From an uncultured bacterium (GTDB taxonomy: Bacteria > Omnitrophota > Omnitrophia > Omnitrophales > Aquincolibacteriaceae): a stretch of 64,000 nucleotides of DNA. A model generated the notes under the pieces. It had not been told where the DNA came from. It did not search any database and saw nothing but the letters and a program-made list of their open reading frames with translations. A program made the translations under genes and the position numbers. Location of the stretch: NCBI GenBank assembly GCA_964606385.1, contig CAZSFZ010000004.1, positions 47,344 through 111,343 on the forward strand, read 5' to 3'. Within the stretch, counting starts at the first letter, position 1, and each line of letters opens with the position of its first letter. Positions 18,801-59,956 of this stretch are shown here, one piece after another.

Positions 18801-21800
18801 CAATTTTTCGGCGACCAAGGACATCAATAATCAAGGGAGCCAATACCTGCCTGAGGAATCAGGACGATTTGTCGCTAAGATCCGTGACATGTTCGAAGTA
18901 GCTAAAAAACAGGGCGAATTCCGTTTCGCGATCGCTGCAGCGAATGATCCTCTCATCGATGAAGAATTGATGAAAGCGACGGATGACGGAACGGATGTCT
19001 ATGTGGACTACCTGAAGAACGGTGTTGCGACGGGCGTCAATTTAGACCGCATCCGCAACGTCAAAGATAAGATCATTGTCGATAGTGTCGGAGGGTCCAT
19101 GTACCGGACCATGACGCGTATCTTTGCGAAACTCGGGATTGCGGACGCGTTCCAGTGGTTGCATACAGAAGAAGACCCGTTCTTTCACGGGATTGGTAAG
19201 GAATTGACCTCTGCGGGGAAGGTGAACGACTACACGCAGGACACGACGGTCATTAAACGTGACAAGAAAACCGGGGAAACGACTTCGATCCCTGTCATGG
19301 AACGTATGGGGTATGACACGCTTCTTAAGGACGCGCCGATCGGGAAAGTAGTGCTTATGACGGACCCGGATGGAGACCGTCTGGTAACGGGACAGGTGGA
19401 ATCCGCGGACCGTGCCGCATACTTGAAACAGCTTGGAGTGGAAGTCCTGAAGCTGGACGAGAATCGGATCCTCGCGGTCTACTCTCCAAACCAATCCTTT
19501 TTCATGTCGATGGTTTATCACGCGGATTCGCTCAAGGCCGCGGGACTGTGGGATAAGCACCCGCGTTTTATCATCATGACGACCGCTTCGTCGCCGGCGT
19601 GGCGCGAATGGGCCGAGAAGAACGGCGTCCAAGTCCTGAACGTGCCGGTCGGTTTTAAAGAGATCGCCGCGATGATGAAGAAGGTCGAATACCAGATGAA
19701 GAAAAATCCGGGAAAACCGGTCGTTGTGAAGGACGTCTTTGGGCGAGAAGTGAACCTGGGTTTGGACCCCCGGATGCTTTTTGCAGGAGAGGAGTCCGGC
19801 GGGATGATCATCGGGCCTGAAGAGCTTATCCAGAGCCGGAGCGGCCGTTTGGCGATCGCGATGCGGGAAAAGAGCGCGGGCGAAGCACTCGTGATCCAAG
19901 CAGCGATGGCGGCTTATTTGGAATCCAAAGGCCAGCCTTTGTCCGGTTATCTCAGTGAACTATTTGATAAGAACCGGATCGCAAGCCGTTTTGATGTGCG
20001 TCATGACCAGACTTTCTACAATCAAAGCGAGCCGGATCCCGATGAACTGAAGAAAGAAAAAGCGAAAGGCGAGATCGCCCGCGAAAAGAATTACGCGTTC
20101 TTTGTGAATATGGTGCTTTCGAAGCTTTCGGGGAAGACGACCACTCAACAGATCATCGAGATATTGAATGAGGTTTTCGCCCCTCAAGGGCTCCGCTTCG
20201 ATGATCTTCAGGACATGATCTTCGTGGGAGATGGTGTTTACCTTCAGTTTCCGGACAAAATCATGGAGATCCGGCCTTCCGGGACTGACGCGAAATCAAA
20301 ATCCTATGGTTACGGGAATGACAAGTTGCGTTTGGCGGTTTATGCGCAGGCCGTGGGTGCCTATAGCGGCGATCCGACGGCTCTTTACCGGCAGTATGTT
20401 GATATGAGCAATTTTGAAGAGGTTAGGGTCGTAAATGGGAAGCCTGTGTTTCGCGGCGAAGATGTTCGCTGGGAGCTTTATCAGGCTTATTACCGGGAGG
20501 GACTTCCGGAAGAGGACTATCAGCCGGCTATGGTTTCCGTCGGCTCAAATCTCGTGACCCCGGCTCAGTCGGAAATCCTGAAAGCGCGTGCGGAAATGCG
20601 TTCGAAACTTGATCTCGAGCAGGCCGCGAAAGCTATGACGATCTCGGCCGCGGTGATCTTGGGTCTTGTGGTCCTGGGCCAGCTCTCTGAAGTCGCTAAG
20701 CTGACGCTTGGCCTTGCCACACTCGGTCTTGCGGGAGCCTTCTGGAACATCCGGAATTTCAGCTTCAAACCGGAGGATCTTTCAAGCCGTTATCCTCAAG
20801 CGACTTCTCTGATCCGGGAGAAGATCCAAAAGATCCTCGCCATCGATCCGCATTTTACGGGTTATGCCTTGGACAGGATCGATTGGAAAAAGATCGATCG
20901 TGATCTTGTGGAGCTTGCTTCCTTAGAAGCGCTCATTGCGCATGGAAGTCAGCACGTTCTGACGGATAGCGGCATCAAGCTTGTTCGGGATGACCGCAAA
21001 GGTGCTGTGACGGTCTTTTCAGCGCAGTCCGTCCGTGACCAGCTCAAGAAGACAGGCGGGGAGATCGTTGAGGCGGGTCACCGGTACCGGCAAGCGGCGC
21101 GCGAACGCTATAGCGTTCAACTGGCTTCGCGTAGTGAGGCGCGCGCAGAAGGGGAAACAGAAGTAAAGCCTGCGGCAAACGCGGCCGTTTCGGCAGAGAA
21201 GCCGGTTGAGGAAAAGCCGGCGCCCAAGATCGATCCCACGAAACCGCTTTATGAAGCTACCTCGTCTCCTCGCGAAGAAAAATCTGCCGTGCTTGAAGGC
21301 GGGGCTATCTTGTTCTGGGGATTTATTGGCATTCTGACCGTGGCCGGATTAGTGGGCGCTCTGATCTTTATTCATAAGGAAGCGGCGCATGATGGTATGT
21401 CTCGCGCGATCATGGTCACGATCTATGGCGTGCTCGCGATCACCGGAACTGTCGCTGGGTGGTTAATCTATGGCATGAGTCGGGATAACCAAAAAATCGC
21501 GGGAGCGGAGGCGAGTTCCAAGTCTGAGGTGGTTTCTCCCGTTAAGGCAGGTAGTCAGCCGTTCCAGCCTTCCGATGCGCCCAAGATCCCCGCGGAAGCC
21601 GCGACGGAAAGCCGTTCCGAAGTGCGTCAAAACGTTGAACAGGAAATGAACGATCTTTTGTCCCGCCGGGACGACCTCATGAAAACCGAAAAATATACGG
21701 CCCAGGTTGCGGTCGAACTTCAGCAGGTCAACGACCGGATCGCGGAGATTCGCCGCAATGTTCAGCAATCCAGAGAGCGTTCGGAAATTCGTAATCCGGA

Positions 21801-24513
21801 AAAAACAATAGATCGAGAAATTGTTCCCGCCCTGATGAAAAGAATTGTCGACCGGGAAATGACGCTTCAAAAGATAGTGGTGGATGAAAAAACCCGTCTT
21901 GAAATAGAAGTTTCTTTGCGTGAACGCGCGATAAACGCTTATCACGCGATCTTTCCCGTTGCAGTCTCAAAAGGATTGGACCCCATAGCGGCTCTAAGGT
22001 TTTTTTATGGGCTGGTTCCTTCGGAAACGGATAGCGATAGAAAATTCATGGACGTCTATGCCGGATTTCTGGCGAAGGATGAAGAAAAGATTCGGGATGC
22101 GAACCGTCAAATATTCGGCACTCCGATCAAGGACCTGGCGACGGCTCGTGAGATCTTTGGGGAAAAATTCTCGTCATGGCTTGGCGTGTTGCTCGCTTTG
22201 CCTCAGGACCTTCTTGAGCAGCGGTTTGCCAAAAAGCTCAGCGGGGACCGCTATGAGCCGGTTGATGAAAATATCTCCGTAATGGCGAACTTCCTTGAGA
22301 ACTTGACGGGGCTTCGTTTGGGGGACGATCGCGAGGTTCTGATCGGGGAAGCCGGTCGGTTGTGGAATGCCTGGAATGATTGGGTCAATCCATCCCGGTC
22401 GATCCCGGTGGCGTCCCGTGTGCTCCAGGTGGGGGGCCTTCAGGTCGTCCAGCATTCCACAGGGTCTTTCATCGCGAAACGGTCTGAGACGCGGATCAAT
22501 CTTATGCAAGTGGCGCCTCAGTTACGGCCTGCGGCAGAATTTCTTGTGGCCACTTTGACGGCCGCAAAAGCAAGCCCGAGGATCGTGACCGCAACGGCTC
22601 GTGAAGTGAAGATCGGAATCACCGATCACGCGGAACGTCAGAATTTGGGGATCATCCTGGCTTATCATCCCGGGAAAACAGGGGTTCTCTATAACAATAG
22701 TGCTCAGCTGCCTGCCGCGGTGGATTTTGAGGTTCGCATTGAACGCGGGGCGGATGAAGCGGAAATGACCACATATGCTTTTGGAGCGGTCAGCGCCGAG
22801 GGCGACGCCCAGGCCAGGGATCTCGTGAATCAATCCTACAGATTGCTTGATACCCTGAGTAAGCTGGAACCTTCCTGGAGCAATGTGCTTCCGGATGGGT
22901 ACTACCCCGGGCGTGGTACCGAAACGGTTTCGCTGGGGACTGAAAAAGATGTCGGACAGACGCGCGCGGAAGTCCGCATCAATGATTTCCGCTATTCCAT
23001 AACCCCGCTGTCCGCGGATGAGAAACGGGTTCCGGGATCGATCAAACGTGAGATGAGTGATGAGGCCCAGCAACCCAATGTTCGCTGGAGCCGGGAGGAG
23101 CTCGAAGGTCTTTCCCAAAAGGTTGTGGATGCGATGAAATACTGGACCCCGAGGCTCTATACCTCCAAGGCTCCGGATGTTCAAACAGCCAAGATGGTTC
23201 AGGAACGGTTATACTCCGAACATTATAGCTATGAGATACCTCTCGCGGCCCATATGTTAAAGGAGATAGCCTTAAAAGCATTGGCCGGAAGAGGTCCTCA
23301 GATCAATGAACTGGGAGAAGGTGACTTGATGTGGGTGGCCAGGGTGCTTCGAGCAGGTGCCGAACATGGCCGCATCCTTCAGAAATACCGGGAAAACTAC
23401 CAGGGGTGGGGGAACTACGACCAGCTGGAATATCTGGCAAGCTCGTCCTCCTATCTGAGAAACGTTCTGAGGAAATTAACCGAGATTTATCAGGCAGAGG
23501 CGCGCCAGGCCGGATCGAATCAGCCCGTGGCTCCTTCCGCGACTGTTCGCTCGGAAGTCCGTGCCGAGGCTCAAGCGGTCTCGCCTGCCGATCAGGGGAA
23601 TTTCATCGTATGGCAGGATGTCCTCGAGGATGTCTACGAGGGTGTCCGTTATGAAGAGACGATCGTTGAAAAAGTGACGCGCTGGTTTCGCGCCGGCATC
23701 CTGCCGTTGCGTGTGGCGTTCTCAGCATCTTACCAGAGAGCGGTGGAGTTGTTGGAACGCATGGGGATCCGTAAAGATGAAGCCGTGGTGCTGGCGAGCC
23801 GTCTTACGGCGGAAGATATGCGGCTGCTTGAGGCGATCAATGCCAAGAGCTTGGCGATCCCCAGGGATCAGACAGGCAAAACCCTTGCCGGCGGTGTTGT
23901 GTTCATGGATGCCGAAGGGCTTCTGGGATTCGCTAAAAATGATAGCCGTGGTTTTTATGCCATGGTGGAAGAACTTGCCGCGGAACAGACGGCAAATGGC
24001 GTTACCGCTAAGCCGATCCTGACCGCGGGAGATGCCGCGTTGATCGGGAAGATCGCCCAAGTATTGAACAACAAGAATTCCGAACTTTTGCCGGCCGAAA
24101 AAGTAAAGGCCCAGGGCTTGATCGATCAAATCCTTCAGGTCGAGGCCCTCAAAGGGGATCAGGCCGCCACGATCAATGGATTGGCCGCGGCAAGACCCGG
24201 GGGGATGGTCACCGTTCTTTCTTCCGCAGAGATGCTGGCGGGCCTTAGCGAAGGAGCGAACTTCGCCTTCAAAGACCGCTTGGCCAAGGAGAACGTGAAA
24301 CTGGTCGTGCGGGCACTTTTGGGACGGATGAGAACGCTGGCAGCCCAATTGGATGGCGCTCCGGCCGCCGATCGGGTCAAGCTTCTTGAAGAGTTCAATG
24401 CGCGTCGCATGGGGGGTCTCAAGAAGACACAGGGCGGATTCGTTTTCGACAATGTCCTCTTGCTCGTCCAGAGCTTTCTCGCTCAGGAAAAAGCGACCGC
24501 GAAATCCGCATAA
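9793..24513 (+). CDS. Giant multidomain secreted/membrane protein, 4906 aa, with embedded amino-acid-dehydrogenase-like and phosphohexomutase-like domains and a recurring R-[SA]-E-x-R motif
   Basis: Uninterrupted 14.7-kb ORF, while neighbouring genes stop at TAA/TGA/TAG. N-terminal signal peptide. No similar-length antisense ORF. Internal enzyme-family motifs. See sub-features and findings. Confidence 0.85.
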   Translation: MNSHKTFKAFVAGFTALIFTVTSFGISPNAFAAAAMPEVSLPYQAALGQSLNLAVPQKLGKLEHFNAGQSDKPAIFHLQTAHGHYEAQQQIREILHYLDKQYGVRTVLVEGSAFKLEPELLNFFPKDKALTQKVNDALTKRAIVKGPELYLLDMLGERGTGNANVNRSTHDVSRAAAPAAYGIEDLNAYRENGVSFVNVLEEKQKTEQFLADMNLQIDRLASQLLNKDLRDFLRRVDAFEKNQIPLDTWLAQLKGEAAKRLEIDLASPTQQLDWPMMVRLFKAQELTAKIDREKLPKEREEFLKAIRRFMPGNVKRGTQNDPSTVSRSPFIAIESLLHSDSISVQLPDPETGMLFEDMVTQLPANFNYEAFPNVRNFIATLLLQSELKADLVMLEVQKLTAAVTEKLTRNKTEKKLVTLLADHRLLQKLFALELTPADYEAIAGHDPRSKAHEKTLKPSAIVARFKNVARGPGAVARSKAVQFENVQELDQLDQLYESAMKFYEGVKGRDELMMKRVEERLKETGDQKVAVITGGFHSEPFHKYFANKQYTYALISPRISGADDKGHVAYIESVMGITKRATRESVSPADRQVLAAENLYGVDQAAYRNLVRKVIADVTRPHLAEADAARLKFAAGLATAGNFRAEMRQTVPGTPQNTGETAAITFTEAKDIVEARKAKARVQGTRGAWPSLDSVFRDSSFVFIPIAVGSEFAGNYFLRSRSEARANDEGLIEQIVRDLKENIQAGPDFILTALQNRRSLLTLELNYYDIAEQIYQTLSKTGMKKVEAEIFFSKNSDAIRQAFSRSEARTEEEERALSVDILLGQSPQKLPQDVIHKLKENGFQTFGDILTALDEKLRKGKRRFSFLDWVTEVEFLVAVKREAPISYAKIQKIRTPKSRAEVREASEFGIEEDDKFPMTDAEADLSLDDIIGELYAVADADESDSGDAKAEALQHIDLIQSAKHKNQLLPAIVDAQKFLRSPLAANRSEVRIDPKELEAKFPTAAELGIKRPAKWQFWMQDPVIERMKAYATEYLAFYGYAPKAAWLKSFVDMYLAGSRHSFQAFQRMLPADKLDAFVYIGDLKKLPTAPQPAAKSEVQSALKKPGAKRSEIRLTPEQETRPLDIVKDQAAISHVVVTAESLYRQWSSKWFWQLRMGEFSNAKKQIKALLENKKLTYKDRNFYGLNRQPITEEAFILQVIVLGRLGYGIDASIVTNKEITRSVSRAGKRDSWETSEDVEHWGRDVEVVSPASHNIYLVATARSEVRLTDAVDVSNQALFNDIRSVAENRGAEAALEFIHAYEPRITGDQDRAALEAYRKALEQSMRSELRNAGEKEAKRLQLMEEAKALSAQSEAMAKDPDEERYAPLYEGYARERLRQAAQLEAEMDASARAELRVGAVIQRVAIFAAVAAMTGLVGCATSQPGLYHPPVYYPASQKTPIYHPPTLPSNYRAPKINTAPVVPPGGIRVTPPRPSVPPAPKPPVIRPGRSEVRSAFHHLKEAKTPAEVGHYLAQLLVTGQLNGQDKKILEKALQDEFASETSGEKVQDPSKITRRSELRGHLDRIRKAQQRLEEERTSAKWLVILGLAGLIFILHALEKSSSGEIDEAQTQAPLLDLGQAQPRSELRETTQEALRRIHADLDGVDRLITELKRDRKAPNRETRLRVLNAAYRELEQERLRLEIEKAVKDFWGEELIQFLGSVATVSPATLGRALVLGAVMHPAMIRNFTKLDRSEVRAEADVATAAKIAERWKRITYVESDPEGAKLKAEAEEKGAGFLNNAQTTVRKVAAQIKLDPKVLEKLLQFTKAIQIKIPLTLDEGGETRYIDGYRIGHAPYRGPYKGGIRYAIAVVLSMIKALATEMSFKNAIAGLPYGGGKGGVAVNPKELSVKELARLTRGYVSECLKQDPKAFGPLDDVPAGDIGTTSREMGWFADEFLKITRPDLFTSSEFLEKLAKSDETSTPYLEYYMEAYYGKRHIDMSEGSPIATVTAKPEGKGGAMGRTPATGLGLYYVTREALKVYGERLGIGTSVKGQRVAVEAYGNVGSYAARSFYKDGASIMALKEYVRGQNVAVTAVKDSGIDLDALDKHLAEKNADGTSKGNTVLTYAAAHPEDARVVDVDQFWSSDVTILALAAKEKTVNKEIAALIKAKIISEGANGPLELDGSEQILLDKGAIILPDVATNDGGVAFSSLEWRQNNIGELWPEVAGNGLMEDKVVSAFYDISRVSESQKITLREAAYQIAISKIVDAMLAEDSELASLFDESHPPYVMDAGAKRWRPETLPQLKQVDSTAKRIELIERADSVMSKKVDELVAEALRELPLKRGSVILLGGQRAAGKPMLAGQIMNKIREKGIKADVLDLDYQTIEDVSRVLQGKTIFVRKENGLSGGAFNLEDKEILVVHGYYALGDEILRFVKAMGGKAYPVMAYSSPDILLANNWALTAYDLRLMRDILTSVAVGEENNAQEVIRRWQWQRVSETEAVMATWKNARRAINTYLPYELPFLKSLIAPMIRVATQQEMKRPDSDVFTMNVLHHLDKLLVGVEGWDVSLLDGHHNSVLWEYVQRYAPNGIYAESADDDIKKVANALVKEAKDTVFLLTSLQDAENLTQLPAWLSASIERILLALEVQKDAASWYVENRGNLVRLLSGRSEMRTMPALGSPHQERSGARLNVLILGRGSDAGVLGEDIWKGLGRPDQGIYMPETEREARSALRNVRGSFDAVVVTIPDGNQTLPRWMFDLVLEMRGQMPEIPVLISASDKSMVSPAAIYTIRAPIKLFVKTQGSPALVATLKDIPARSEARAIPVLGATHPELEAKYKDQVEASTPAYVKRGNPIFDITTPGQFEAVLKYAHLYAYKKDVAFDPANPGPNDEGLGLMAWLEDYEAEAKVATAGIRLTQNILYPWDTRNRINEIGIAFATLAKASVSKEQFSGKDLEKLTGGESRYNTKRFVDMIARIQAAQGIRTYVPVKRHTTPIWMVSMLAFMFDLVGAEHVTSSHAGSNFSATKDINNQGSQYLPEESGRFVAKIRDMFEVAKKQGEFRFAIAAANDPLIDEELMKATDDGTDVYVDYLKNGVATGVNLDRIRNVKDKIIVDSVGGSMYRTMTRIFAKLGIADAFQWLHTEEDPFFHGIGKELTSAGKVNDYTQDTTVIKRDKKTGETTSIPVMERMGYDTLLKDAPIGKVVLMTDPDGDRLVTGQVESADRAAYLKQLGVEVLKLDENRILAVYSPNQSFFMSMVYHADSLKAAGLWDKHPRFIIMTTASSPAWREWAEKNGVQVLNVPVGFKEIAAMMKKVEYQMKKNPGKPVVVKDVFGREVNLGLDPRMLFAGEESGGMIIGPEELIQSRSGRLAIAMREKSAGEALVIQAAMAAYLESKGQPLSGYLSELFDKNRIASRFDVRHDQTFYNQSEPDPDELKKEKAKGEIAREKNYAFFVNMVLSKLSGKTTTQQIIEILNEVFAPQGLRFDDLQDMIFVGDGVYLQFPDKIMEIRPSGTDAKSKSYGYGNDKLRLAVYAQAVGAYSGDPTALYRQYVDMSNFEEVRVVNGKPVFRGEDVRWELYQAYYREGLPEEDYQPAMVSVGSNLVTPAQSEILKARAEMRSKLDLEQAAKAMTISAAVILGLVVLGQLSEVAKLTLGLATLGLAGAFWNIRNFSFKPEDLSSRYPQATSLIREKIQKILAIDPHFTGYALDRIDWKKIDRDLVELASLEALIAHGSQHVLTDSGIKLVRDDRKGAVTVFSAQSVRDQLKKTGGEIVEAGHRYRQAARERYSVQLASRSEARAEGETEVKPAANAAVSAEKPVEEKPAPKIDPTKPLYEATSSPREEKSAVLEGGAILFWGFIGILTVAGLVGALIFIHKEAAHDGMSRAIMVTIYGVLAITGTVAGWLIYGMSRDNQKIAGAEASSKSEVVSPVKAGSQPFQPSDAPKIPAEAATESRSEVRQNVEQEMNDLLSRRDDLMKTEKYTAQVAVELQQVNDRIAEIRRNVQQSRERSEIRNPEKTIDREIVPALMKRIVDREMTLQKIVVDEKTRLEIEVSLRERAINAYHAIFPVAVSKGLDPIAALRFFYGLVPSETDSDRKFMDVYAGFLAKDEEKIRDANRQIFGTPIKDLATAREIFGEKFSSWLGVLLALPQDLLEQRFAKKLSGDRYEPVDENISVMANFLENLTGLRLGDDREVLIGEAGRLWNAWNDWVNPSRSIPVASRVLQVGGLQVVQHSTGSFIAKRSETRINLMQVAPQLRPAAEFLVATLTAAKASPRIVTATAREVKIGITDHAERQNLGIILAYHPGKTGVLYNNSAQLPAAVDFEVRIERGADEAEMTTYAFGAVSAEGDAQARDLVNQSYRLLDTLSKLEPSWSNVLPDGYYPGRGTETVSLGTEKDVGQTRAEVRINDFRYSITPLSADEKRVPGSIKREMSDEAQQPNVRWSREELEGLSQKVVDAMKYWTPRLYTSKAPDVQTAKMVQERLYSEHYSYEIPLAAHMLKEIALKALAGRGPQINELGEGDLMWVARVLRAGAEHGRILQKYRENYQGWGNYDQLEYLASSSSYLRNVLRKLTEIYQAEARQAGSNQPVAPSATVRSEVRAEAQAVSPADQGNFIVWQDVLEDVYEGVRYEETIVEKVTRWFRAGILPLRVAFSASYQRAVELLERMGIRKDEAVVLASRLTAEDMRLLEAINAKSLAIPRDQTGKTLAGGVVFMDAEGLLGFAKNDSRGFYAMVEELAAEQTANGVTAKPILTAGDAALIGKIAQVLNNKNSELLPAEKVKAQGLIDQILQVEALKGDQAATINGLAAARPGGMVTVLSSAEMLAGLSEGANFAFKDRLAKENVKLVVRALLGRMRTLAAQLDGAPAADRVKLLEEFNARRMGGLKKTQGGFVFDNVLLLVQSFLAQEKATAKSA
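10256..10315. repeat. Family-1 palindromic element inserted in-frame inside the giant ORF
   Basis: ggggaacggggaacggggaacgcaaacgttaaccgttccacgcatgacgtttcccgcg. Translates GERGTGNANVNRSTHDVSRA without a stop. Confidence 0.7.
10724..10790. repeat. Family-1 palindromic element inserted in-frame inside the giant ORF
   Basis: ggggaacgtaaaacgtggaacgcagaacgatccgtcaaccgtttcccgttcaccgttcatcg. Translates GNVKRGTQNDPSTVSRSPFIA. Confidence 0.7.
11193..11223. repeat. Family-2 direct tandem (GTGGCCCG x3) in-frame inside giant ORF
   Basis: cgtggcccgtggcccgggagccgtggcccgg, translated VARGPGAVAR. Confidence 0.6.
13981..14260 (+). other. Predicted TM helix followed by a Pro/Tyr-rich low-complexity segment in giant protein
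   Basis: VGAVIQRVAIFAAVAAMTGLVGCA, then PGLYHPPVYYPASQKTPIYHPPTLPSNYRAPKINTAPVVPPGGIRVTPPRPSVPPAPKPPVIRPG. Confidence 0.55.
14527..14585 (+). other. Predicted TM helix in giant protein
   Basis: AKWLVILGLAGLIFILHAL hydrophobic stretch. Confidence 0.5.
15190..16560 (+). other. Glu/Leu/Phe/Val dehydrogenase (GDH-family) domain inside giant protein
   Basis: Family motifs in canonical order: PYKGGIRYA (substrate Lys), GGGKGG (catalytic Lys loop), DVPAGDIGTTSREMGWFADEF, and NAD(P) fingerprint AYGNVGSYAARSF. Confidence 0.75.
16770..16890 (+). other. P-loop kinase-like segment (degenerate Walker A) inside giant protein
   Basis: GSVILLGGQRAAGKPMLAGQIMNKIREKGIKADVLDLD resembles a uridine-kinase/PRK-type N-terminus, but GKP replaces GK[ST]. 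Confidence 0.3.
18430..20400 (+). other. alpha-D-phosphohexomutase (PGM/PMM)-like domain inside giant protein
   Basis: All four family motifs in order: Ser loop TSSHAGSN (~18790), metal loop TDPDGDRL (~19365), sugar loop AGEESGGM (~19790), phosphate loop IRPSGTDAKSK (~20275). Confidence 0.7.
20620..20752 (+). other. Predicted pair of TM helices in giant protein
   Basis: AAKAMTISAAVILGLVVLGQL...LTLGLATLGLAGAFWNI. Confidence 0.5.
21298..21480 (+). other. Predicted cluster of ~3 TM helices in giant protein
   Basis: GGAILFWGFIGILTVAGLVGALIFI...AIMVTIYGVLAITGTVAGWLIYGM. Confidence 0.5.
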
Positions 24514-52976: not shown

Positions 52977-53249
52977 ATGACCAAAGAACAGATTAACTAT
53001 CTGCTGGCGCTCGCAACGCTTTTTGTCGTCTGGCTTTATTTCAATACTTTTTATGCTAATGCAGCAAAGAGGGGGTATAGTGGGAATCCTCTTGCTGGAT
53101 TAAAAGCCGTTGTCGCTAAAGCTCCTAATGCTCCTGTCTTTCCCAAAATTCCTGAGGCACCTTTCACGAAGATATCCCAAGTCAATAGAGCTGACGCGCC
53201 AGCGTCTGCAATCCCCGTGATGCCAGCCGGCGACGCGGATAAAAGCTAG
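52977..53249 (+). CDS. Small membrane protein of unknown function (90 aa)
   Basis: Strong RBS GGAGGA 8 nt upstream. One TM helix (LLALATLFVVWLYF), then a Pro/Ala-rich tail. Confidence 0.45.
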   Translation: MTKEQINYLLALATLFVVWLYFNTFYANAAKRGYSGNPLAGLKAVVAKAPNAPVFPKIPEAPFTKISQVNRADAPASAIPVMPAGDADKS

Positions 53250-54000: not shown

Positions 54001-54155
54001 AACTGCGGATACTGTAGCATAAGAAAAAATGCGGAGAAAGTAAAAATATGTAGAAAGTATGCGAAAAAAGTGCCGAAAACAACTTAGTATGTATTTCCAT
54101 AGCAACTTTCGATAAAACTATTGAAATGGTCTTGGGGGCCATATATCATTACTGT

Positions 54156-54638
54156 ATGAACGCTAAAGGGTTATCGCTTGTCGAGATCGTTGCGAGCATC
54201 GTCGTTTTGTCAGTCATTGCCCTCGGAGCCACAGCGACAGTTACGGTAGTGAATAGTGATCAGGTTCGGATGGCCGGGGGCAGCACCCTTGAACTTCAGG
54301 CGCTCAGTTTCGCGCGACAAACGATTGAAGAGCTTCGAAACGATGTGAGGGGCACGACTGAAGAGATGTGGTATGCGAACAATTCCACGGCTTGGAGTTT
54401 GGCCGATAATAGTTACGCGATACCGTGCACTTCAGCTCTTGGTCAACCATGCGGAGTGGGGACATGGTATACCCCCCAGGGTGCTGGATTTGTGAACGGG
54501 CTTCCCCCGGGCAACCTCGCGACTCGCGGAGGCCGGAGGCGTTATCTTGTACAAGATATGTCTACCGGGGTCGGTACTGCCGGCATGGACGTTGCATATA
54601 AACGAATCATAGTGCAGGTGGACCAATGGGCCGATTGA
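54156..54638 (+). CDS. Prepilin-type (type IV pilin / pseudopilin) protein
   Basis: Short basic leader MNAK, then G|LSLVEIVASIVVLSVIAL (class III signal, Glu+5). Confidence 0.65.
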   Translation: MNAKGLSLVEIVASIVVLSVIALGATATVTVVNSDQVRMAGGSTLELQALSFARQTIEELRNDVRGTTEEMWYANNSTAWSLADNSYAIPCTSALGQPCGVGTWYTPQGAGFVNGLPPGNLATRGGRRRYLVQDMSTGVGTAGMDVAYKRIIVQVDQWAD

Positions 54639-55246
54639 AGAGAGCCTCCTCAGGTTTTACTCTCCTGGAGCTGGTCATTGCTTCGACGTTGGCTTTCATA
54701 GTGATCCTTGCAGCTTCCAACCTTCTCATCAACTTTGGCCGCTTTACTTCCACGACCATCCGCGCGGAAGCCACTCTGATGGATGCCGCTCTTGCCGCAG
54801 TTGAAGATGTTGTGGCTTGCATCAATGGGGCGAACGCGGTATCGATTATTCCGGACGGTCAGCTTGCCGCCCGCCCCGCCGGCTGCGTCGGCAGTAGTTG
54901 CATTCAGGTCCGAACGGATCAAAAAATGCCGCTCGGGTGTGTTGGTAACAACTGCAGTTACTCCCCAACTGATTTCACGAATGATGTGGTTCACACTTAT
55001 TGGCGGGAGTTTCTTAACAACAATTGGGCCATACGGTATTCATCGCGGAATTTGGTGAATAATACAACTGTCGGGCCGATCTCTCTAGCCGATAGAGGCA
55101 TTACAAGCCTCAGTTTTGCGCGCAACGCGGCGGACAGGAACAAAATCACGATCACTTTAATAGTACAAGCCGCCAGCGGTCCGTCAGGCGCCCTGTCTAC
55201 TGAGAACCTGGTTACGACTGCTACGATGCGGGGGGCGACGGGATAA
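54626..55246 (+). CDS. Prepilin-type protein
   Basis: MGRLKRASSG|FTLLELVIASTLAFIVIL. 4-nt overlap with the upstream pilin gene. Confidence 0.65.
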   Translation: MGRLKRASSGFTLLELVIASTLAFIVILAASNLLINFGRFTSTTIRAEATLMDAALAAVEDVVACINGANAVSIIPDGQLAARPAGCVGSSCIQVRTDQKMPLGCVGNNCSYSPTDFTNDVVHTYWREFLNNNWAIRYSSRNLVNNTTVGPISLADRGITSLSFARNAADRNKITITLIVQAASGPSGALSTENLVTTATMRGATG

Positions 55247-55250
55247 ACTT

Positions 55251-55610
55251 ATGTCCAGAGGTTTTGCTTTGATCACTGTTTTGGCTGTTGCGATCATGGT
55301 TGCGTTGGGAGCCGCCACGGTGCTTCAGTCCATGTCAAGCTATGGCGTCATGAAAGCGACGACCATTAAAGAGACGCAATTTAAATACCTTGCTGAGGCG
55401 GCCATGCAGCATGCTCTTTATCGATGCAGGACCAATACGAACGGTTGTGCCGCGGGATTATTGACTTGTTGTGTTAATGAGTCTAATTTTACTGTCAATA
55501 CCACCGTGAACGGCGTTTCTGTTAATATACCGGCACCTATTTCAATTGCGAATGTGGGCTCGGGTACGAGAGAAGTGAATACTACAATTCAATATGCGGA
55601 GAGTTACTAA
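55251..55610 (+). CDS. Pilin-like protein lacking Glu+5 (GspK/PilX-like minor pseudopilin?)
   Basis: MSRG|FALITVLAVAIMVAL hydrophobic N-terminus without the conserved Glu. Four Cys in the C-terminal part. Confidence 0.5.
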   Translation: MSRGFALITVLAVAIMVALGAATVLQSMSSYGVMKATTIKETQFKYLAEAAMQHALYRCRTNTNGCAAGLLTCCVNESNFTVNTTVNGVSVNIPAPISIANVGSGTREVNTTIQYAESY

Positions 55611-55652
55611 CGGGGCGAAGAACGACTAAAACCACCTTAAGGGGAGGAAGTT

Positions 55653-56048
55653 ATGAGCGTCCGGAGAGGGTTCACGTTAACTGAAATTATCGTCACCATC
55701 GCCATCGTGGCTGTGATCGCGGTGGTCGCATTGCCCAATTTCACCAAAGCCCGGCAGAGAGCCTCGGCAAGGCAAGCGGCGGATTATTTGCGGACTATCG
55801 CCACCGCTGAGAAGCTGTATTACGCAAAATGGAAATCGTTTATTGGCCTCCCCAATGCCGCTACAATTCAGGGGCTGACCGGCGCGGAAGTCAGTTCAAG
55901 AGATTTTAACTTTGCGGTAGCAGCAACTCCCACCAGCTTTACCGCAACGGCTACGAGGATAGGCGGTAGCGGCGGGACGATTACGTTAAATCAGAACGAT
56001 GCCTGGGGAGCAACAGGTTCTGAATCGAGATATTTGCCGCAAGGGTAA
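55653..56048 (+). CDS. Type IV pilin (PilA/GspG-like)
   Basis: MSVRRG|FTLTEIIVTIAIVAVIAVVALPNF. About 130 aa. Confidence 0.75.
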   Translation: MSVRRGFTLTEIIVTIAIVAVIAVVALPNFTKARQRASARQAADYLRTIATAEKLYYAKWKSFIGLPNAATIQGLTGAEVSSRDFNFAVAATPTSFTATATRIGGSGGTITLNQNDAWGATGSESRYLPQG

Positions 56049-56114
56049 GACCCAAAGCGGAATTTTGAAAAGGATATTCGCGGTCTATTCCCCGCGAAGG
56101 AAGCGGGGGCGCGC

Positions 56115-56522
56115 ATGATGAAAATGAGGAGCAAAATGAAAAAAGGATTCACGCTGACGGAGATTCTGATAACGATATGTATCTTGGCGATCATGGCCGC
56201 GATCGCCGTCCCGACCTTCAATGCTGCCAGAACGAAGAACCAGGCGGCTCAAGCGATGTCTTATCTTCGTGCGATCCGTATGGCGGAAATGATGAATTAC
56301 TCGAAATGGGGGACCTACCAGTCCAACATCGCATCGTTGGGGGTTGAAACAGCCGGTTCTCCCTACGCTTTCACTTATCAGGTGTTGAACGCCGGAAATC
56401 CTACGGCCATTCCTCCTGTAAGACCGAGTTTTCGCCTTACTGCGACGGGGCCCGGAGGAACGATTACGCTCGATTCGGATGGGACTTGGGGCGGGACTTA
56501 CGCCCCATTGCCTGCGGCCTGA
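56115..56522 (+). CDS. Type IV pilin (PilA/GspG-like)
   Basis: ...MKKG|FTLTEILITICILAIMAAIAVPTF. Paralogue of the preceding gene. Exact start among four nearby ATGs is uncertain. Confidence 0.75.
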   Translation: MMKMRSKMKKGFTLTEILITICILAIMAAIAVPTFNAARTKNQAAQAMSYLRAIRMAEMMNYSKWGTYQSNIASLGVETAGSPYAFTYQVLNAGNPTAIPPVRPSFRLTATGPGGTITLDSDGTWGGTYAPLPAA

Positions 56523-56627
56523 CGATTGATCAAAGGTGGGGTCCTACAAGACGGCTTCATCTTGCGGTAAGGTGACTCAACGCGGGTTTTGAGTTTTTTT
56601 ATGAGATTCAAAATTGAGGGGAAAAAG

Positions 56628-57263
56628 ATGTTCTATCGGAATATTGGGATTTTAGCGGCTGTGTCCGTGTTTTTGTTTCTTGCTACTGCCCAAGCTGCCC
56701 GCTTGGAAAGGACAACGCAATACCCCTCTCCTGAGGGGGACTATCGAAGTTTGCTGACTACGGATCAGTCGTTTTTCATGACCAATAATACCGCGGGCAC
56801 GAGTTTGGGGATTGGGACCTCGGCCCCGACGAATATTACCGCCAATGATGGCGGTGCCAATGTTGATCTGCATATTACCGGGTCGATAGTTCAGGACGGA
56901 TGGGTGAATGTCATTGATGCTGGCGCGCCGAACTTCCAAAACAGTTGGACGGATTGTGCAAGCGCCTTGGGTTTCAATTCGGCCGGTTATTTCAGGGACA
57001 GAAATGGGATCGTCCACCTGAAGGGGGCCGTGCGGGGGGGAACGATCGATTCGACAATATTTACGTTGCCAGCCGGTTTCAGACCGAGCATGAACCAACT
57101 CTTTATTGTGCCTGTTCAGGCCTCAGGATCGACGTGTGCCGGTTATCGATACGGACGGCTTACTGTACTAACCAACGGCCGAGTGTACGCGGAACATCCC
57201 GTCGGAGTGACGCCCGTTGCGTTTGGCTTGGACGGAGTCACATTTAGAGCCGATGGATATTAA
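56628..57263 (+). CDS. Secreted protein, paralogue 1 of a tandem triplet (unknown family)
   Basis: RBS GAGGGG before ATG 56628. Signal peptide ending AQA. Conserved blocks GIGT.AP.NI..ND, GIVHLKG, LPAGFRP, LDGVTFRADGY shared with the next two genes. Confidence 0.65.
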   Translation: MFYRNIGILAAVSVFLFLATAQAARLERTTQYPSPEGDYRSLLTTDQSFFMTNNTAGTSLGIGTSAPTNITANDGGANVDLHITGSIVQDGWVNVIDAGAPNFQNSWTDCASALGFNSAGYFRDRNGIVHLKGAVRGGTIDSTIFTLPAGFRPSMNQLFIVPVQASGSTCAGYRYGRLTVLTNGRVYAEHPVGVTPVAFGLDGVTFRADGY

Positions 57264-57309
57264 AACCATGGGAAACGGCAAAAAAGGTTTTTTAGGAGGA
57301 TCCAAAGAA

Positions 57310-57933
57310 ATGCCTTGGAAGAAGATGTTTATAGCATTCAAGATATTTGTGATATTTGTGCTGCCAGCCGGCCTTGCGGATACAGGAAGCGTTGATGTTG
57401 CGACGTACTATCCTTCGTCGGATGCGACATATCCGACATTGCTTACCACGGGAACAACAACGATCGCCACGGACAATTCTTTCGGGAGAAACGTCGGCAT
57501 CGGGACCGCAGCGCCCGGAAATATTGGTGAGAACGACGCAGGAGGGGCTGGGGTCGATCTCAATGTGACCGGGACGATAGTTCAGGAACCGTGGACAAAT
57601 ATCGGTGCTATCAGTGCACCCGCCTTTCAGGGCGCTTGGGCTAATTATCCCGGTGCAACCTGGAATCAGGCCGGTTTTTTTCGTGATAAAAGCGGTATTG
57701 TGCATTTGAAGGGGTTGATCCGTTCAGGGGTTGTTCCTTCAACGGTCTTTAATTTGCCTGCAGGATATCGCCCTGCGCGAGAGGAGCATTTTTTCGTTTT
57801 GTCGCACAACAATTTAAACTATATAGACGGTCTGGTTGTTGTTTCGTCTGCGGGGGCCGTTTCCGTGGATTGCGGGGCCAGCGCCAATTTTGTTTCATTG
57901 GACGGTATTTCGTTTCGGGCAAATGGATATTAG
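57310..57933 (+). CDS. Secreted protein, paralogue 2 of a tandem triplet
   Basis: RBS AGGAGGA 8 nt before ATG 57310. Signal peptide. Same conserved blocks, ending LDGISFRANGY. Confidence 0.65.
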   Translation: MPWKKMFIAFKIFVIFVLPAGLADTGSVDVATYYPSSDATYPTLLTTGTTTIATDNSFGRNVGIGTAAPGNIGENDAGGAGVDLNVTGTIVQEPWTNIGAISAPAFQGAWANYPGATWNQAGFFRDKSGIVHLKGLIRSGVVPSTVFNLPAGYRPAREEHFFVLSHNNLNYIDGLVVVSSAGAVSVDCGASANFVSLDGISFRANGY

Positions 57934-57971
57934 CAGATAATTTCGCGATGGTTTGCGACTTGAGGTGGAAA

Positions 57972-58583
57972 ATGTCGTTTCGGAGCTTTGCTTGGATGAT
58001 CGTTTTGGCGTTGATGCTGCCGGCGCGAGGATGGGCCGGTTCGGTGGAACTGACCACCTATTTGCCCATGCCGCATGGCCGTTATAAGCGAGTGACCACC
58101 ACGGGGCAAACCAATTTTGCGACCGGTAATAATGCGGGACAAGCCGTTGGCATCGGGACTGCGACCCCTACGAATATTGCGGCGAACGATAGTGTTCCTA
58201 ATATCGATCTGCACATTACGGGAAATATCATGCAGGAGAATTGGAAGCTTATCGGAGCCGCGGGGCAGCCGGGTTTTCAAAGCGGTTTTGAAAATTGTCC
58301 CTCGGGATGGGGTTATAATTCAGCGGGTTTTTTTCGGGATAAAAACGGGATCGTGCATCTGAGGGGTTTGGTGCGAGGACCGCTTAACAGTACGGTTTTT
58401 CAATTGCCGGCGGGATACACGCCGGCGAGGAATGAACTTTTCGCTGTGATGTCCGCCGGTTCCGGTTCTCATAGCTGGTCGCGCCTTACGGTTCAATCCA
58501 ATGGGGTCGTGCTATTTCAGCACAACGGAGGCCCCGATTGGTACTGTCTGGATGGCATTACGTTTCGGGCGAGCGGATATTAG
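57972..58583 (+). CDS. Secreted protein, paralogue 3 of a tandem triplet
   Basis: RBS GAGGTGG before ATG 57972. Signal peptide (ARGWAGS). Same blocks, ending LDGITFRASGY. Confidence 0.65.
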   Translation: MSFRSFAWMIVLALMLPARGWAGSVELTTYLPMPHGRYKRVTTTGQTNFATGNNAGQAVGIGTATPTNIAANDSVPNIDLHITGNIMQENWKLIGAAGQPGFQSGFENCPSGWGYNSAGFFRDKNGIVHLRGLVRGPLNSTVFQLPAGYTPARNELFAVMSAGSGSHSWSRLTVQSNGVVLFQHNGGPDWYCLDGITFRASGY

Positions 58584-58655
58584 GATTTTCAAAGGCATTT
58601 GATTTTTTGAGAAGTAAAGTAAGGGTGAAGTTCCGTCCTTTTTATTTTGAGTTTG

Positions 58656-58795: not shown

Positions 58796-59956
58796 ATGTC
58801 AGTTTTTATCGGTAAGGACCGCAAAGCACGCAGGGCCTATGGTTTTGATGAGATCGCGCTCGTCCCGGGGGATATCACCATCAACCCCGAGGAAGTGGAT
58901 ATTCAGATGAAGATCGGGAAGATCATCTTTGATATCCCGTTCCTGGCATCCGCCATGGACGGTGTGGTGGACCCGAAATTCGCCGTTGCGATGGGGAAAC
59001 TTGGGGGTTTAGCCGTGCTGAACCTCGAAGGCATCTATACTCGCTACGACGATTATGAGACGATCTTGGATGAGATCGCGAAATCGTCCCCGGAAAAAGC
59101 GACGGAGCTTGTCCAGAAGCTCTACGTGAAGCCGATCGACGAGAAGTTGATTGCCAAGCGTATCCGGGAGATCAAAAAGGCCAAAGTGCCGTGTGCCGTG
59201 AGCGCGATCCCGCAGCGTGCTGAGAAATTCGGCAAGATCGCCGAAGAGGCCGGGGCGGATATCTTTGTGGTGCAGTCGACTGTTACGACGGTGCATCACA
59301 TCGCGAAAGCCTACAAGGTCGTGGATTTCAAGAAACTTTGTAAAGGGATGAAGATCCCCGTGATCCTCGGGAACTGCGTGACTTACAAGGTCGCGCTGGA
59401 ACTCATGGAAACCGGTTGCGCGGGACTTTTGGTCGGGATCGGGCCCGGTTCGGCCTGTACGACGCGCGGCGTGCTCGGGATCGGCGTGCCGCAGGTGACG
59501 GCCATCGCGGATTGCGCGGCGGCCCGCGAATTCCATCACAAGAAGACCGGTAAGTATGTTTCCATCATCGCGGACGGCGGCATGTCCACCGGCGGCGATA
59601 TCTGCAAATCCATCGCTTCCGGTGCGGACGCGGTGATGGTGGGATCCGCTTTTGCCCGCAGCAAGGAAGCGCCGGGCCGTGGTTTTCACTGGGGGATGGC
59701 GACACCGCACGCGAATCTGCCGCGCGGCACCCGGATCCGGGTTGGGACGACGGGGACGCTTGAAGAGATCCTGGTCGGGCCCGCGAAACTGGATGACGGG
59801 ACGCAGAACCTTGTAGGAGCGCTCCGCACTTCGATGGGGAACGTCGGCGCCCAGACCATCCGTGAGATGCAGCTGACCGAGATCGTGATCGCTCCGGCCA
59901 TCAAGACCGAAGGCAAAGTGTTCCAGTCCGCTCAAAAATTAGGAATGTGTAAGTAA
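58796..59956 (+). CDS. IMP dehydrogenase-family protein lacking the CBS subdomain (GuaB-related)
   Basis: IMPDH/GMPR TIM-barrel motifs (catalytic loop GIGPGSACTTR, phosphate loop GGMSTGGDICKSIASGADAVMVGS). Only 386 aa, so no room for a CBS pair. Confidence 0.7.
   Translation: MSVFIGKDRKARRAYGFDEIALVPGDITINPEEVDIQMKIGKIIFDIPFLASAMDGVVDPKFAVAMGKLGGLAVLNLEGIYTRYDDYETILDEIAKSSPEKATELVQKLYVKPIDEKLIAKRIREIKKAKVPCAVSAIPQRAEKFGKIAEEAGADIFVVQSTVTTVHHIAKAYKVVDFKKLCKGMKIPVILGNCVTYKVALELMETGCAGLLVGIGPGSACTTRGVLGIGVPQVTAIADCAAAREFHHKKTGKYVSIIADGGMSTGGDICKSIASGADAVMVGSAFARSKEAPGRGFHWGMATPHANLPRGTRIRVGTTGTLEEILVGPAKLDDGTQNLVGALRTSMGNVGAQTIREMQLTEIVIAPAIKTEGKVFQSAQKLGMCK

Follow-up and report, generated by a model that had tools for sequence, protein, structure and literature searches.

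In the 64,000-nucleotide stretch of DNA that we analyzed (here called the window), a type IV pilin cluster is followed by three consecutive genes for small proteins that have a signal peptide and a C-terminal domain with the predicted fold of a phage receptor-binding protein (RBP) head. Given this combination of an RBP head and a pilin-cluster setting, the most likely explanation for these proteins, which we call p1, p2, and p3, is that they are adhesins of the cell surface that derive from phages. The reading that we prefer, with a probability of roughly 0.5, is that they are domesticated, probably trimeric, phage-RBP-like surface adhesins that have a functional link to a type IV filament, on which they would be displayed or by which they would be secreted.

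The window is probably from a bacterium of the Omnitrophota; this assignment is based on the MAG labels of related contigs, which are in conflict (Omnitrophota versus Kiritimatiellales). Omnitrophota are abundant, uncultured, ultra-small bacteria for which a life attached to hosts or prey has been proposed. In the search for how they recognize their partners, giant proteins and, more generally, pili have so far received most of the attention. p1 to p3 are small and tractable candidates (~180 amino acids [aa]) for this recognition: the job of their fold in phages is the specific recognition of cell-surface receptors, and their genes occupy the usual position of genes for pilus-tip adhesins. In Omnitrophota, type IVa pili are almost universal and have been proposed to mediate host attachment (PMC10066038).

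Three tandem paralogues and the predicted fold of their heads

56628 to 57263, plus strand: paralogue 1 (p1), 211 aa; signal peptide at aa 1 to 23, N-terminal motif TTQYPSPEGDY, GIGT neck at aa ~57 to 92, phage-RBP-like head at aa ~93 to 211
57310 to 57933, plus strand: paralogue 2 (p2), 207 aa, with the architecture of p1; the most divergent of the three
57972 to 58583, plus strand: paralogue 3 (p3), 203 aa, with the architecture of p1; N-terminal motif TTYLPMPHGRYK

The triplet was originally proposed in a sequence-only reading, and open reading frames with these ends are indeed present on the plus strand. The ATG starts of p1, p2, and p3 are preceded by ribosome-binding sites (GAGGGG, AGGAGG, and GAGGTGG, respectively) and agree with the N termini of orthologues at other loci. 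Pairwise BLASTP identities are 40% for p1/p2 (E, 3e-42), 47% for p1/p3 (E, 9e-64), and 47% for p2/p3 (E, 5e-53), which is far above chance; the proteins are thus related as had been claimed, at identities slightly higher than the 35 to 45% estimated by eye. The motif blocks listed in that reading are invariant or nearly invariant columns in the alignment of p1 to p3 and are still conserved in an alignment of 16 family members, and in both alignments the variable segments and indels lie mainly outside these blocks. The local GC content is slightly lower than that of the surroundings (0.51 versus ~0.55).

Each protein also has its own signal peptide, as had been proposed, with a basic n-region, a 12-aa hydrophobic core (Kyte-Doolittle value, 2.4 to 2.9), and an AxA-like predicted cleavage site (AQA-A, GLA-D, and GWA-G for p1 to p3, with the hyphen marking the cleavage point). 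Residues 2 to 20 are modeled as a helix by AlphaFold2 (AF2). Sec-type signal peptides are kept across the family, and the cleavage site after AFAG is aligned. The absence of a prepilin motif was likewise borne out: p1 to p3 lack G-FTLxE and have no match to Pfam N_methyl or TIGR02532. A class III signal peptide, G-F(T/S)LxE followed by a hydrophobic N-terminal helix, is missing from all three, and they are not type IV pilins or pseudopilins. Neither a lipobox Cys nor a membrane anchor is found in their sequences. Scans of p1 to p3 against Pfam, NCBIfam, and PADLOC give no match, and therefore we rejected a characterized enzyme or defense family.

No model in Pfam or NCBIfam covers the family, but its fold is not a new one: the AF2 model predicts a phage RBP head, a C-terminal beta-sandwich/beta-barrel of ~100 to 125 residues. 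The head is modeled with a pLDDT of 85 to 98, and the N-terminal 60 mature residues are modeled with low confidence (pLDDT, 55 to 65). A Foldseek search of the head against the PDB finds 6r5w (E, 1.8e-5), and 55 phage tail, RBP, or BppU proteins in BFVD match at E<=1e-3 by structure, with identities of up to 36%. PHROG minor-tail and virion families match p1 to p3 with E values of 2e-8 to 1e-5. The neck and head of p1 align with the last ~190 aa of an 851-aa fibre (34% identity; E, 4e-26) encoded in Methanoperedens, whose gene lies downstream of two Baseplate_J genes and a Tail_P2_I gene. More distant single-domain relatives are located in phage tail modules, where most relatives are found. 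Taken together, these sequence matches establish homology of p1 to p3 to the fibre tips of phages and contractile injection systems (CIS). Identity to solved RBPs is 8 to 20%, and PDB sequence-profile searches with profiles A1, A6, and A7 give only insignificant matches (e.g., Zav_19 at E 0.12).

The sequence-only reading had likened these proteins to lectins, tail-fibre tips, or C1q-like jelly rolls. The tail-fibre tip is supported by the Foldseek match to 6r5w, by PHROG, and by the Methanoperedens fibre, while the C1q part did not survive. A C1q/TNF/Pgp3 assignment was prompted by tandem-repeat relatives of the head domain, some of which weakly match PF05475 (best E, 5e-8), the Pfam family of the C-terminal TNF-like trimer domain of Chlamydia Pgp3; this domain and the C1q/TNF jelly rolls are likewise secreted and form trimers of beta-sandwich heads carried by a fibre-like stalk. 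Pfam and fold searches led us to reject it for p1 to p3, which neither match the PF05475 profile nor have a TNF/C1q jelly-roll among their best structural neighbors.

By analogy, p1 to p3 are probably trimeric. The solved RBPs with a head of this kind are all homotrimers that bind cell-wall saccharides (PMC7291167), and the Pa223 needle is a trimer too. Among relatives, the head domain often occurs in 3 or 6 tandem copies within one chain. A concatenated three-head AF2 model, built with natural 3x-tandem homologues as the alignment, has a pTM of 0.55 and a mean pLDDT of 70, with low-confidence disordered linkers.

The upstream pilin cluster

54121 to 54149, plus strand: sigma-70-like promoter match (10/12 consensus), candidate operon promoter, upstream of or overlapping the start of pilin-like gene 1
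54126 to 54638, plus strand: pilin-like gene 1, minor-pilin type (Pfam N_methyl, E 1.9e-4; TIGR02532)
54626 to 55246, plus strand: pilin-like gene 2, 206 aa, minor-pilin type (Pfam N_methyl, E 3.7e-5), SGFTLLELVIAS
55251 to 55610, plus strand: pilin-like gene 3, 119 aa, with a hydrophobic N-terminal helix without Glu5, GspK- or PilX-like
55653 to 56048, plus strand: pilin gene 4, 131 aa, type IVa major-pilin type (N_methyl, E 2.7e-6; TIGR02532, E 1e-7)
56115 to 56522, plus strand: pilin gene 5, 135 aa (128 aa from the ATG at 56136), major-pilin type (N_methyl, E 6.9e-6; TIGR02532, E 5e-7), KKGFTLTEILIT
58621 to 58640, plus strand: terminator-like hairpin with a T-run, candidate operon end, 38 bp past the p3 stop

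The earlier count of five prepilin genes is about right, since four of the five pass Pfam N_methyl; it is only approximate because the third lacks Glu5 and its sole match is a weak one to the NCBIfam T2SS_GspK N-terminal model (E, 1.6e-3), far under the cut-off. The position and size of this third gene are nevertheless kept at loci L004, L011, and L026. Pilin-like gene 1 likely starts at the in-frame ATG at 54156, which gives MNAKG-LSLVEI. Pilin-like gene 2 has weak matches to GspH and to a prepilin-peptidase-dependent protein, and a PDB search with it finds no sequence relative.

The gaps are 105 bp between pilin gene 5 and p1, 46 bp between p1 and p2, and 38 bp between p2 and p3. There is no G+C-rich terminator between pilin gene 5 and p1, and we rejected an attenuator or terminator in this gap, which holds just an AU-rich hairpin (z = -1.5). 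The promoter-like and terminator-like sites bracket all eight genes, i.e., the five pilin genes and p1 to p3. Both are weak evidence, the promoter match because the regional count of such sites is not above shuffle expectation, and the hairpin because the regional fold is no better than that of shuffles. By gene layout, p1 to p3 are thus non-pilin, Sec-exported proteins of what may be a minor-pilin operon, which is the setting of PilY1/PilC.

One alternative is that the five pilin-like genes encode pseudopilins (GspG/H/I/J/K-like) of a type II secretion system (T2SS) and that p1 to p3 are its substrates, which would be exported by Sec, fold and trimerize in the periplasm, and exit through the secretin to act as free or loosely bound lectin-like binders rather than as tip components. 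Three minor subunits and one or two major subunits suit a pseudopilus equally well, and the pilin-like genes have weak NCBIfam GspG-, GspH-, and GspK-like N-terminal matches. In keeping with this alternative, p1 to p3 combine Sec signal peptides with the absence of a membrane anchor, lipobox, or pilin motif. In addition, the gene for a T2SS substrate can lie next to gsp genes, as pulA does next to the pul genes. However, every Gsp match is far under its curated cut-off, and the best PDB sequence matches of pilin gene 4 are type IV major pilins (Thermus PilA, 6xxd, E 1e-7; geopilin; Myxococcus PilA), with GspG far weaker (E, 0.13). Genes for gspD/E/F are absent nearby; against our preferred reading, in turn, the 64-kb window contains no pilus assembly genes (ATPase, platform, secretin, or prepilin peptidase). 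The conserved N-terminal peptide and the fibre neck also suggest attachment, not release. We consider it unlikely that p1 to p3 are T2SS cargo.

Synteny, copy number, and ancestry of the locus

At every locus recovered with flanking sequence, the layout is five pilin genes, then one to three family copies, then an IMPDH-like gene. The window and the loci L004, L008, L011/L012, L009, and L026 all retain the order of five pilin genes followed by the family gene(s), and the same-strand arrangement is conserved in at least 6 related loci. L026 is from a more divergent relative that has one family copy and still keeps the five-pilin order. Copy number varies among loci (1, at least 2, or 3), and the pilin set is constant at five.

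Positional orthologues of p1 to p3 are 48 to 70% identical across species and ~40% identical across clades. The positional orthologue of p2 is L004 gene 2 (89% bootstrap) and that of p3 is L004 gene 3 (100% bootstrap); the R/K-Y-K-N form of the p3 N-terminal motif is common to gene 3 of the other clade. The proposal that the triplet is diversifying by duplication must be tempered: positional orthologues in other species show that the copies are old. In a bootstrap neighbor-joining tree, the six proteins of the window and L004 are grouped at 94%. This grouping and the single copy in L026 indicate that the triplet is not an ancient universal feature; the genes were apparently triplicated separately in two clades, or once with later homogenization. 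In view of the same two observations, an obligate heterotrimer is unsupported. Other contigs of the same species, which we inspected for strain-level selection, are 100% identical over the locus.

The conserved layout could also mean less than it seems to. The whole region, from FolE, LpxD, and a SurA-like gene to the IMPDH-like gene, GuaA, and DnaE, is collinear in all related contigs, so pilin adjacency is not independent evidence of a functional link and may be historical. p1 to p3 could then be binding proteins that merely neighbor the pilins in a collinear core-genome region: RBP-like trimers, at the surface or in the periplasm, anchored in some other way (e.g., by the N-terminal peptide to an outer-membrane protein or peptidoglycan), with the three copies providing three ligand specificities, comparable to the multiple MAT fibres of Bdellovibrio (see below) or to multi-RBP phages. 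Consistent with this are the changing copy number beside a fixed pilin set, the 105-bp gap with its AU-rich hairpin, and the variability outside the invariant motif blocks, which is the pattern expected for changing specificity. On the other hand, the pilin and family genes lie on the same strand with short gaps and no G+C-rich terminator, and their association persists at ~40% protein identity and through copy-number change. Moreover, a second Omnitrophota member of the family, at a nonsyntenic locus (L013), also adjoins a gene for an N_methyl pilin-like protein. Independence from the pilus therefore seems improbable to us.

A leftover of a prophage or CIS tail-fibre module without cellular function would account for the homology of head and neck to fibre tips and for the tail-module location of most relatives, but it is highly improbable given that other phage, CIS, integrase, and tRNA-flank features are absent among neighbors that are housekeeping genes, that the open reading frames are intact with ribosome-binding sites and acquired Sec signal peptides, that positional orthologues are kept across species and clades, and that the local GC content is only slightly lower.

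Proposed role and comparison with known fibres and adhesins

If p1 to p3 are adhesins tied to a type IV filament, they would be Sec-exported miniature tail fibres of ~180 aa after signal-peptide cleavage. The predicted mature protein consists of a short N-terminal peptide that is strongly conserved (consensus VELTTYYPxPxGxYxxL) and may be a docking element, a single fibre-shaft/neck repeat (VGIGTxxP...DLxITGSIxQDxW), and a C-terminal beta-sandwich head like that with which siphophage RBPs and contractile-tail fibres form their trimeric receptor-binding tips. The proteins would fold into trimers in the periplasm, and the type IV filament of the five upstream pilin genes, putatively three minor-pilin-like genes as in a tip/priming complex and two major-pilin-like genes, would deliver them to the cell surface and hold them there. 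The heads would bind a glycan or protein on the surface of another cell, a role analogous to that of PilY1/PilC at the tip of the pilus, filled here by a domesticated phage receptor-binding module. More tentatively, and with more doubt than confidence, we suggest that the phage head has been domesticated in Omnitrophota as a type IV pilus tip adhesin proper, in which TTYYPxPxGxY plugs the trimer onto a three-minor-pilin tip complex and the gene was tripled, with the three chains forming a C1q-style heterotrimer or serving as alternative tips.

Siphophage RBPs (Listeria PSA gp15, PDB 6r5w; lactococcal TP901-1 ORF49/BppL, phage p2 ORF18, and bIL170) share with p1 to p3 the order of N-terminal docking element (putative in p1 to p3), neck, and C-terminal receptor-binding head. 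In contrast to these RBPs, p1 to p3 have a Sec signal peptide and a ~20-aa motif at the N terminus, with no shoulder, stem, or BppU-type baseplate-docking domain, and their genes are chromosomal, downstream of pilin genes and without phage genes nearby. Because they lack a baseplate-docking region and their neighbors are pilin and housekeeping genes, p1 to p3 cannot be called phage RBPs, even though they have the head domain. The fibre of the P2-like contractile tail/injection system of "Ca. Methanoperedens nitroreducens" (L010:8135-10690) is a true homologue over its last GIGT repeat, its ISGxIxQExW neck, and the whole head. However, it has at least 8 GIGT repeats, ends in a Pro-rich extension, and lacks a signal peptide, whereas p1 to p3 have one GIGT repeat and the head, plus a signal peptide and the YYPxPxGxY motif.

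The accessible portions of a study of Bdellovibrio (PMC10769870) describe Sec-exported, phage-fibre-like trimers that are used in prey recognition. These mosaic adhesive trimer (MAT) fibres of Bdellovibrio bacteriovorus resemble p1 to p3 in being cell-encoded, signal-peptide-bearing, and phage-tail-fibre-like, with multiple paralogues that differ in their tips. According to the same portions, MAT fibres are ~1,000 aa long, with a conserved beta-rich N-terminal domain of ~130 aa, long beta-helices, and often an S74 chaperone/protease end, and pilin operons are not mentioned there. In contrast, mature p1 to p3 (~180 aa) have in place of the N-terminal domain and long trimeric beta-helix only a ~20-aa motif and one neck repeat. 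The tip folds also differ, and the match to the Bd2133 tip in our PDB profile searches is insignificant (E, 0.6).

PilY1/PilC and p1 to p3 are alike in that they are Sec-exported, are not pilins, and have their genes at the end of a minor-pilin cluster. PilY1 is a protein of >1,000 aa with vWA-like and beta-propeller domains. p1 to p3 are ~200-aa, RBP-like, and present in three copies, and they have no sequence or fold similarity to PilY1/PilC; a C-terminal beta-propeller is not found by Pfam, NCBIfam, or fold searches, which give no match and an RBP head, respectively. The likeness is thus confined to gene position and hypothesized role. For PilY1/PilC, in the fimU-pilVWXY1Y2E arrangement, the accessible portions of two sources propose a pilus-tip adhesin and priming factor (PMC5979040, PMC11525922).

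If the link to the pilus is true, p1 to p3 would represent a new way to arm a type IV filament and would be a clear example of a receptor-binding module that passed from phage to cell by domestication. They would also provide a handle for finding hosts, e.g., with tagged recombinant heads as probes of environmental samples. Should they be tip adhesins, a host-dependent, ultra-small bacterium would become able to recognize hosts in the swappable manner of phages, by means of a retractable fibre. If the link is false, p1 to p3 would be a compact new family of cellular phage-RBP-like lectins, a modest addition to the Bdellovibrio MAT findings. The head domain itself is very common, with ~17,900 cluster representatives, and the architecture that joins a signal peptide to "TTYYPxPxGxY" is rare, with ~12. 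Some relatives carry PF27455 and PF26696.

The paralogous genes and their pilin-like neighbors

The three paralogues (p1 to p3) are consecutive plus-strand open reading frames (ORFs), each with a ribosome-binding site (RBS), as the sequence-only reading had described; Shine-Dalgarno-like (SD-like) sites precede all three, and their ATG starts match the N termini of orthologues on other contigs. Together with five pilin-like genes upstream (pilins 1 to 5), they make up a set of eight genes with the following features.

54121 to 54149, +: promoter-like site at the upstream edge of the eight-gene set
54126 to 56522, +: five pilin-like genes, upstream of p1
56585 to 56615, +: 13-bp AU-rich hairpin (GUUUUGAGUUUUU...AUUCAAAAU) in the gap between pilin 5 and p1, adjoining the RBS
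56628 (ATG) to 57263 (ORF end), +: p1, 211 aa, SD-like GAGGGG
57310 (ATG) to 57933 (ORF end), +: p2, 207 aa, SD-like AGGAGG
57972 (ATG) to 58583 (ORF end), +: p3, 203 aa, SD-like GAGGTGG
58621 to 58640, +: terminator-like hairpin at the downstream edge of the eight-gene set

Pairwise identity among the three proteins is 40 to 47% (BLASTP, E values of 3e-42 to 9e-64), and the shared motif blocks first picked out by eye are invariant or near-invariant columns in the alignment of p1 to p3 and are kept across a 16-member family alignment. The three N termini are Sec-like, with a basic n-region, a hydrophobic core (Kyte-Doolittle 2.4 to 2.9 over 12 residues), and small-x-small cleavage sites (AQA/A in p1, GLA/D in p2, and GWA/G in p3), and inspection of these N termini found neither a lipobox Cys nor a prepilin motif. 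This agrees with the earlier proposal of a putative signal peptide, and no prepilin motif, on each protein. Assignments of p1 to p3 as pilins or as PilY1 homologues were ruled out.

All five upstream genes had been taken for prepilin genes. Four of the five pass the Pfam N_methyl model, and for these the description holds; it does not hold for pilin 3, in which Glu5 is missing and the sole match, at the N terminus, is weak and GspK-like. The gaps are 105 bp (pilin 5 to p1), 46 bp (p1 to p2), and 38 bp (p2 to p3), and no G+C-rich terminator was found between the pilins and the triplet. The promoter-like and terminator-like sites at the two edges belong to classes that are not enriched relative to shuffled sequences. 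The AU-rich hairpin, whose fold is not significantly better than that of shuffles (z = -1.5), could affect read-through or translation. The 64-kb window contains no pilus assembly genes.

Fold and homology of the encoded proteins

Searches of Pfam, NCBIfam, and PADLOC returned no matches for p1 to p3, and residues ~90 to 210 match PHROGs families annotated "minor tail protein" or "virion structural protein" (E values of 2e-8 to 1e-5). An AlphaFold2 model of p1, built from a 66-sequence alignment, has a mean pLDDT of 80. Residues ~88 to 211 form a nine-stranded beta-sandwich (pLDDT 85 to 98), and the 60 residues that follow the signal peptide are modeled as unstructured (pLDDT 55 to 65), as would be expected of a part that folds only inside an oligomeric fiber.

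Structural neighbors of the p1 model (entry; score)
Listeria phage PSA receptor-binding protein (RBP) gp15 (6r5w; 13.5)
Pseudomonas phage Pa223 tail needle (9nxp; 13.2)
Lactococcal phage bIL170 RBP head (2fsd; 10.5)
Lactococcal phage TP901-1 RBP (2f0c; 8.3)
Zamilon Zav_19 (7qrj; 8.2)
Lactococcal phage p2 RBP (2wzp; 7.1)
Adenovirus fiber knobs and reovirus sigma1 heads (several entries; 5 to 7)

Foldseek concurs, finding 6r5w at an E value of 1.8e-5. In addition, 55 predicted viral structures match at E≤1e-3 with up to 36% identity, and those with a name are for the most part minor tail, tail spike, RBP, BppU, or baseplate proteins. The sequence-only reading had seen a likeness both to tail-fiber tips and to C1q-like jelly rolls; RBP and fiber structures bear out the former, while the best structural matches include no TNF, C1q, or Pgp3 chain. 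A C1q-, TNF-, or Pgp3-like assignment is not demonstrable.

A contig of "Ca. Methanoperedens nitroreducens" (L010) carries an archaeal contractile-tail/injection-system-like module (positions 2402 to 10690), in which two Baseplate_J genes and one Tail_P2_I gene are followed by an 851-aa fiber. This fiber has eight "GNVGIGTTTPSERLEINGTVKA"-type repeats and ends with "GKVGIGTTTPSERLEINGNMVISGEIIQESW" and then the same head (YFRDKNGIVHLRG ... SLDGITFLA), and p1 is 34% identical to its C-terminal end (E value of 4e-26). One of its GIGT repeats also matches a Chlorovirus glycoprotein repeat, and several metallopeptidase-like (HExxH) proteins follow it. Based on the fold matches and the homology to this fiber, we conclude that each of p1 to p3 amounts to a signal peptide and a ~20-residue motif joined to the end of a tail fiber, namely its last shaft repeat (or neck) and its receptor-binding head. 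This head falls within the phage RBP-head fold class and is sequence-homologous to tail-fiber tips. Lacking a baseplate-docking domain and lying outside any tail module, the three proteins are not themselves phage RBPs.

Distribution and conservation of the locus

An exhaustive HMMER search over 1.84 billion cluster representatives put the number of proteins with the head domain at 17,899 for E≤1e-3 and at 7,502 for E≤1e-10; many of these proteins have three or six tandem copies per chain. Remoter single-head relatives without a signal peptide are in phage tail modules, adjoining an SU10 adaptor or tape-measure gene. Hundreds of secreted proteins of 330 to 450 aa (P0009 to P0126, e.g., P0013, P0010, and P0014) have three, or in some cases four or six, tandem heads; a few of the multi-head proteins weakly match Pfam Pgp3_C (PF05475). 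These chains may be single-chain pseudo-trimers of a normally trimeric domain. For p1 to p3 themselves, a model of the three concatenated heads, aligned with natural triple-head proteins, has a pTM of only 0.55 and low-confidence linkers. In a further relative, P0008 (220 aa), the same head is immediately preceded by a collagen-like Gly-X-Y stretch (GPAGPAGAQGAAGTPGAPGEPG), an architecture like that of C1q or BclA, but with an RBP-type head.

Full-length matches (profile positions 1 to 208), in contrast to the head, are limited to about a dozen representatives with a common consensus, from Candidatus Omnitrophota MAGs and one Kiritimatiellales MAG where the source is named. The Kiritimatiellales locus (L008) differs very little from an Omnitrophota locus; L008 and the Omnitrophota-labeled L009 come from one study, and the IMPDH-like genes and family loci of L008 and L009/L016 are near-identical, so that one bin is probably contaminated or misassigned. 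From these labels, together with a 4,906-aa ORF in the window, the source is a probable Omnitrophota bacterium.

Wherever a related contig is long enough for the gene order to be read, that order is the same: FolE, LpxD, a small ORF, a SurA-N-like gene on the opposite strand, five pilin-like genes, the family gene or genes, an IMPDH-like gene, and GuaA. There are three family copies in the window, L004 to L007, L008, and L011/L012, at least two in L009, and one in the more divergent L026 (271 aa, with an insert between N-terminal motif and neck). In a bootstrap neighbor-joining tree, the positional orthologue pairs of the window and L004 (genes 1, 2, and 3) have 100, 89, and 100% support, the positional groups of the second clade have 95 to 100%, and the six proteins of the window and L004 group together as a clade (94%). 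Because the tree supports both the positional pairs and the window/L004 clade, the gene would have tripled either twice independently or once with later homogenization; an "(R/K)YKN" form of the N-terminal motif, common to gene 3 of both clades, hints at the latter.

Neither the fold nor the general concept of phage-fiber-like adhesins encoded by cells is in itself new. Four points are: the architecture is pared down to a signal peptide, a 20-aa motif, a single neck repeat, and the head; it is confined to a lineage associated with Omnitrophota; it holds a fixed position as the last element of a pilin cluster; and it recurs in three copies.

The small ORF of this layout (52977 to 53249, +; 90 aa) lies between the LpxD and SurA-N-like genes and encodes an N-terminal hydrophobic helix; its gene call and position are kept in L001/L002 and L011 (101 aa there), and it has no Pfam match on record. 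Directly downstream of p3, and followed by GuaA, is a 386-aa IMPDH-family protein (58796 to 59956, +); compared by eye with its counterparts on related contigs, it is highly conserved. Canonical CBS-containing GuaB is longer than this, and the protein may be a CBS-less IMPDH/GMP-reductase-type enzyme.

Proposed role and alternatives

The RBPs with this head whose structures are solved form homotrimers, in which the N terminus docks into a larger structure and the head, beyond a neck, binds host cell-wall saccharides (PMC7291167); in the 208-residue Pa223 needle, an N-terminal ~50 A plug in the tail hub is joined by a linker to a trimeric core. By analogy, p1 to p3 would be exported by Sec, would trimerize via neck and head, and would be attached to a cell-surface structure by the conserved N-terminal peptide; the heads would then bind partner cells through a surface polymer. 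The best candidate for that structure is a filament of the co-encoded pilins, three of which are minor-pilin-like and resemble a tip/priming complex. Gene structure, paralogy, fold, homology, and gene order are shown; export, trimerization, attachment to a pilus, and the ligand are inferred. Such pilus attachment would fit the proposal that type IVa pili serve Omnitrophota in attaching to hosts (PMC10066038). The mosaic adhesive trimer (MAT) fibers of Bdellovibrio are Sec-exported, phage-fiber-like adhesins and thus a parallel to the proposed role (PMC10769870), but p1 to p3 are not MAT fibers, from which they differ in N-domain, size, and tips.

Conserved adjacency to pilin genes is weaker evidence than it looks, because the whole region is collinear in related genomes, and p1 to p3 could instead be pilus-independent surface lectins that are merely neighbors of the pilins. 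Alternatively, the pilin-like genes could be pseudopilins and p1 to p3 type II secretion cargo released from the cell; Gsp-like matches to the pilin-like genes do exist, but they fall far under the cutoff, and pilin 4 resembles a type IVa major pilin, its nearest solved relatives being of that class. A remnant of a phage or contractile injection system is very unlikely, because the genes are intact, have acquired signal peptides, have housekeeping neighbors, and are retained across species. What makes p1 to p3 worth following is their possible use at a pilus tip and, through it, a connection to how an uncultured phylum may recognize its hosts.

A second association with pilins is seen at positions 783 to 4424 of L013 (Omnitrophota MAG contig Ga0180007_10020152), in a locus that is not syntenic with the window locus. 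The order there is P0204, a family member of greater length that is truncated by the start of the contig, then a DUF6701/Ig-like protein of 753 aa, and then one of 402 aa that carries a prepilin N_methyl motif.

Elsewhere in the window is a giant ORF of 4,906 aa (9793 to 24513, +), in which Pfam sees only ELFV_dehydrog_N and ELFV_dehydrog (the Glu/Leu/Phe/Val dehydrogenase core; aa 1809 to 2254, E values of 1e-38 to 1e-43) and PGM_PMM_III (aa 3243 to 3392). It looks like an enzyme core set within a very long, otherwise unannotated protein.
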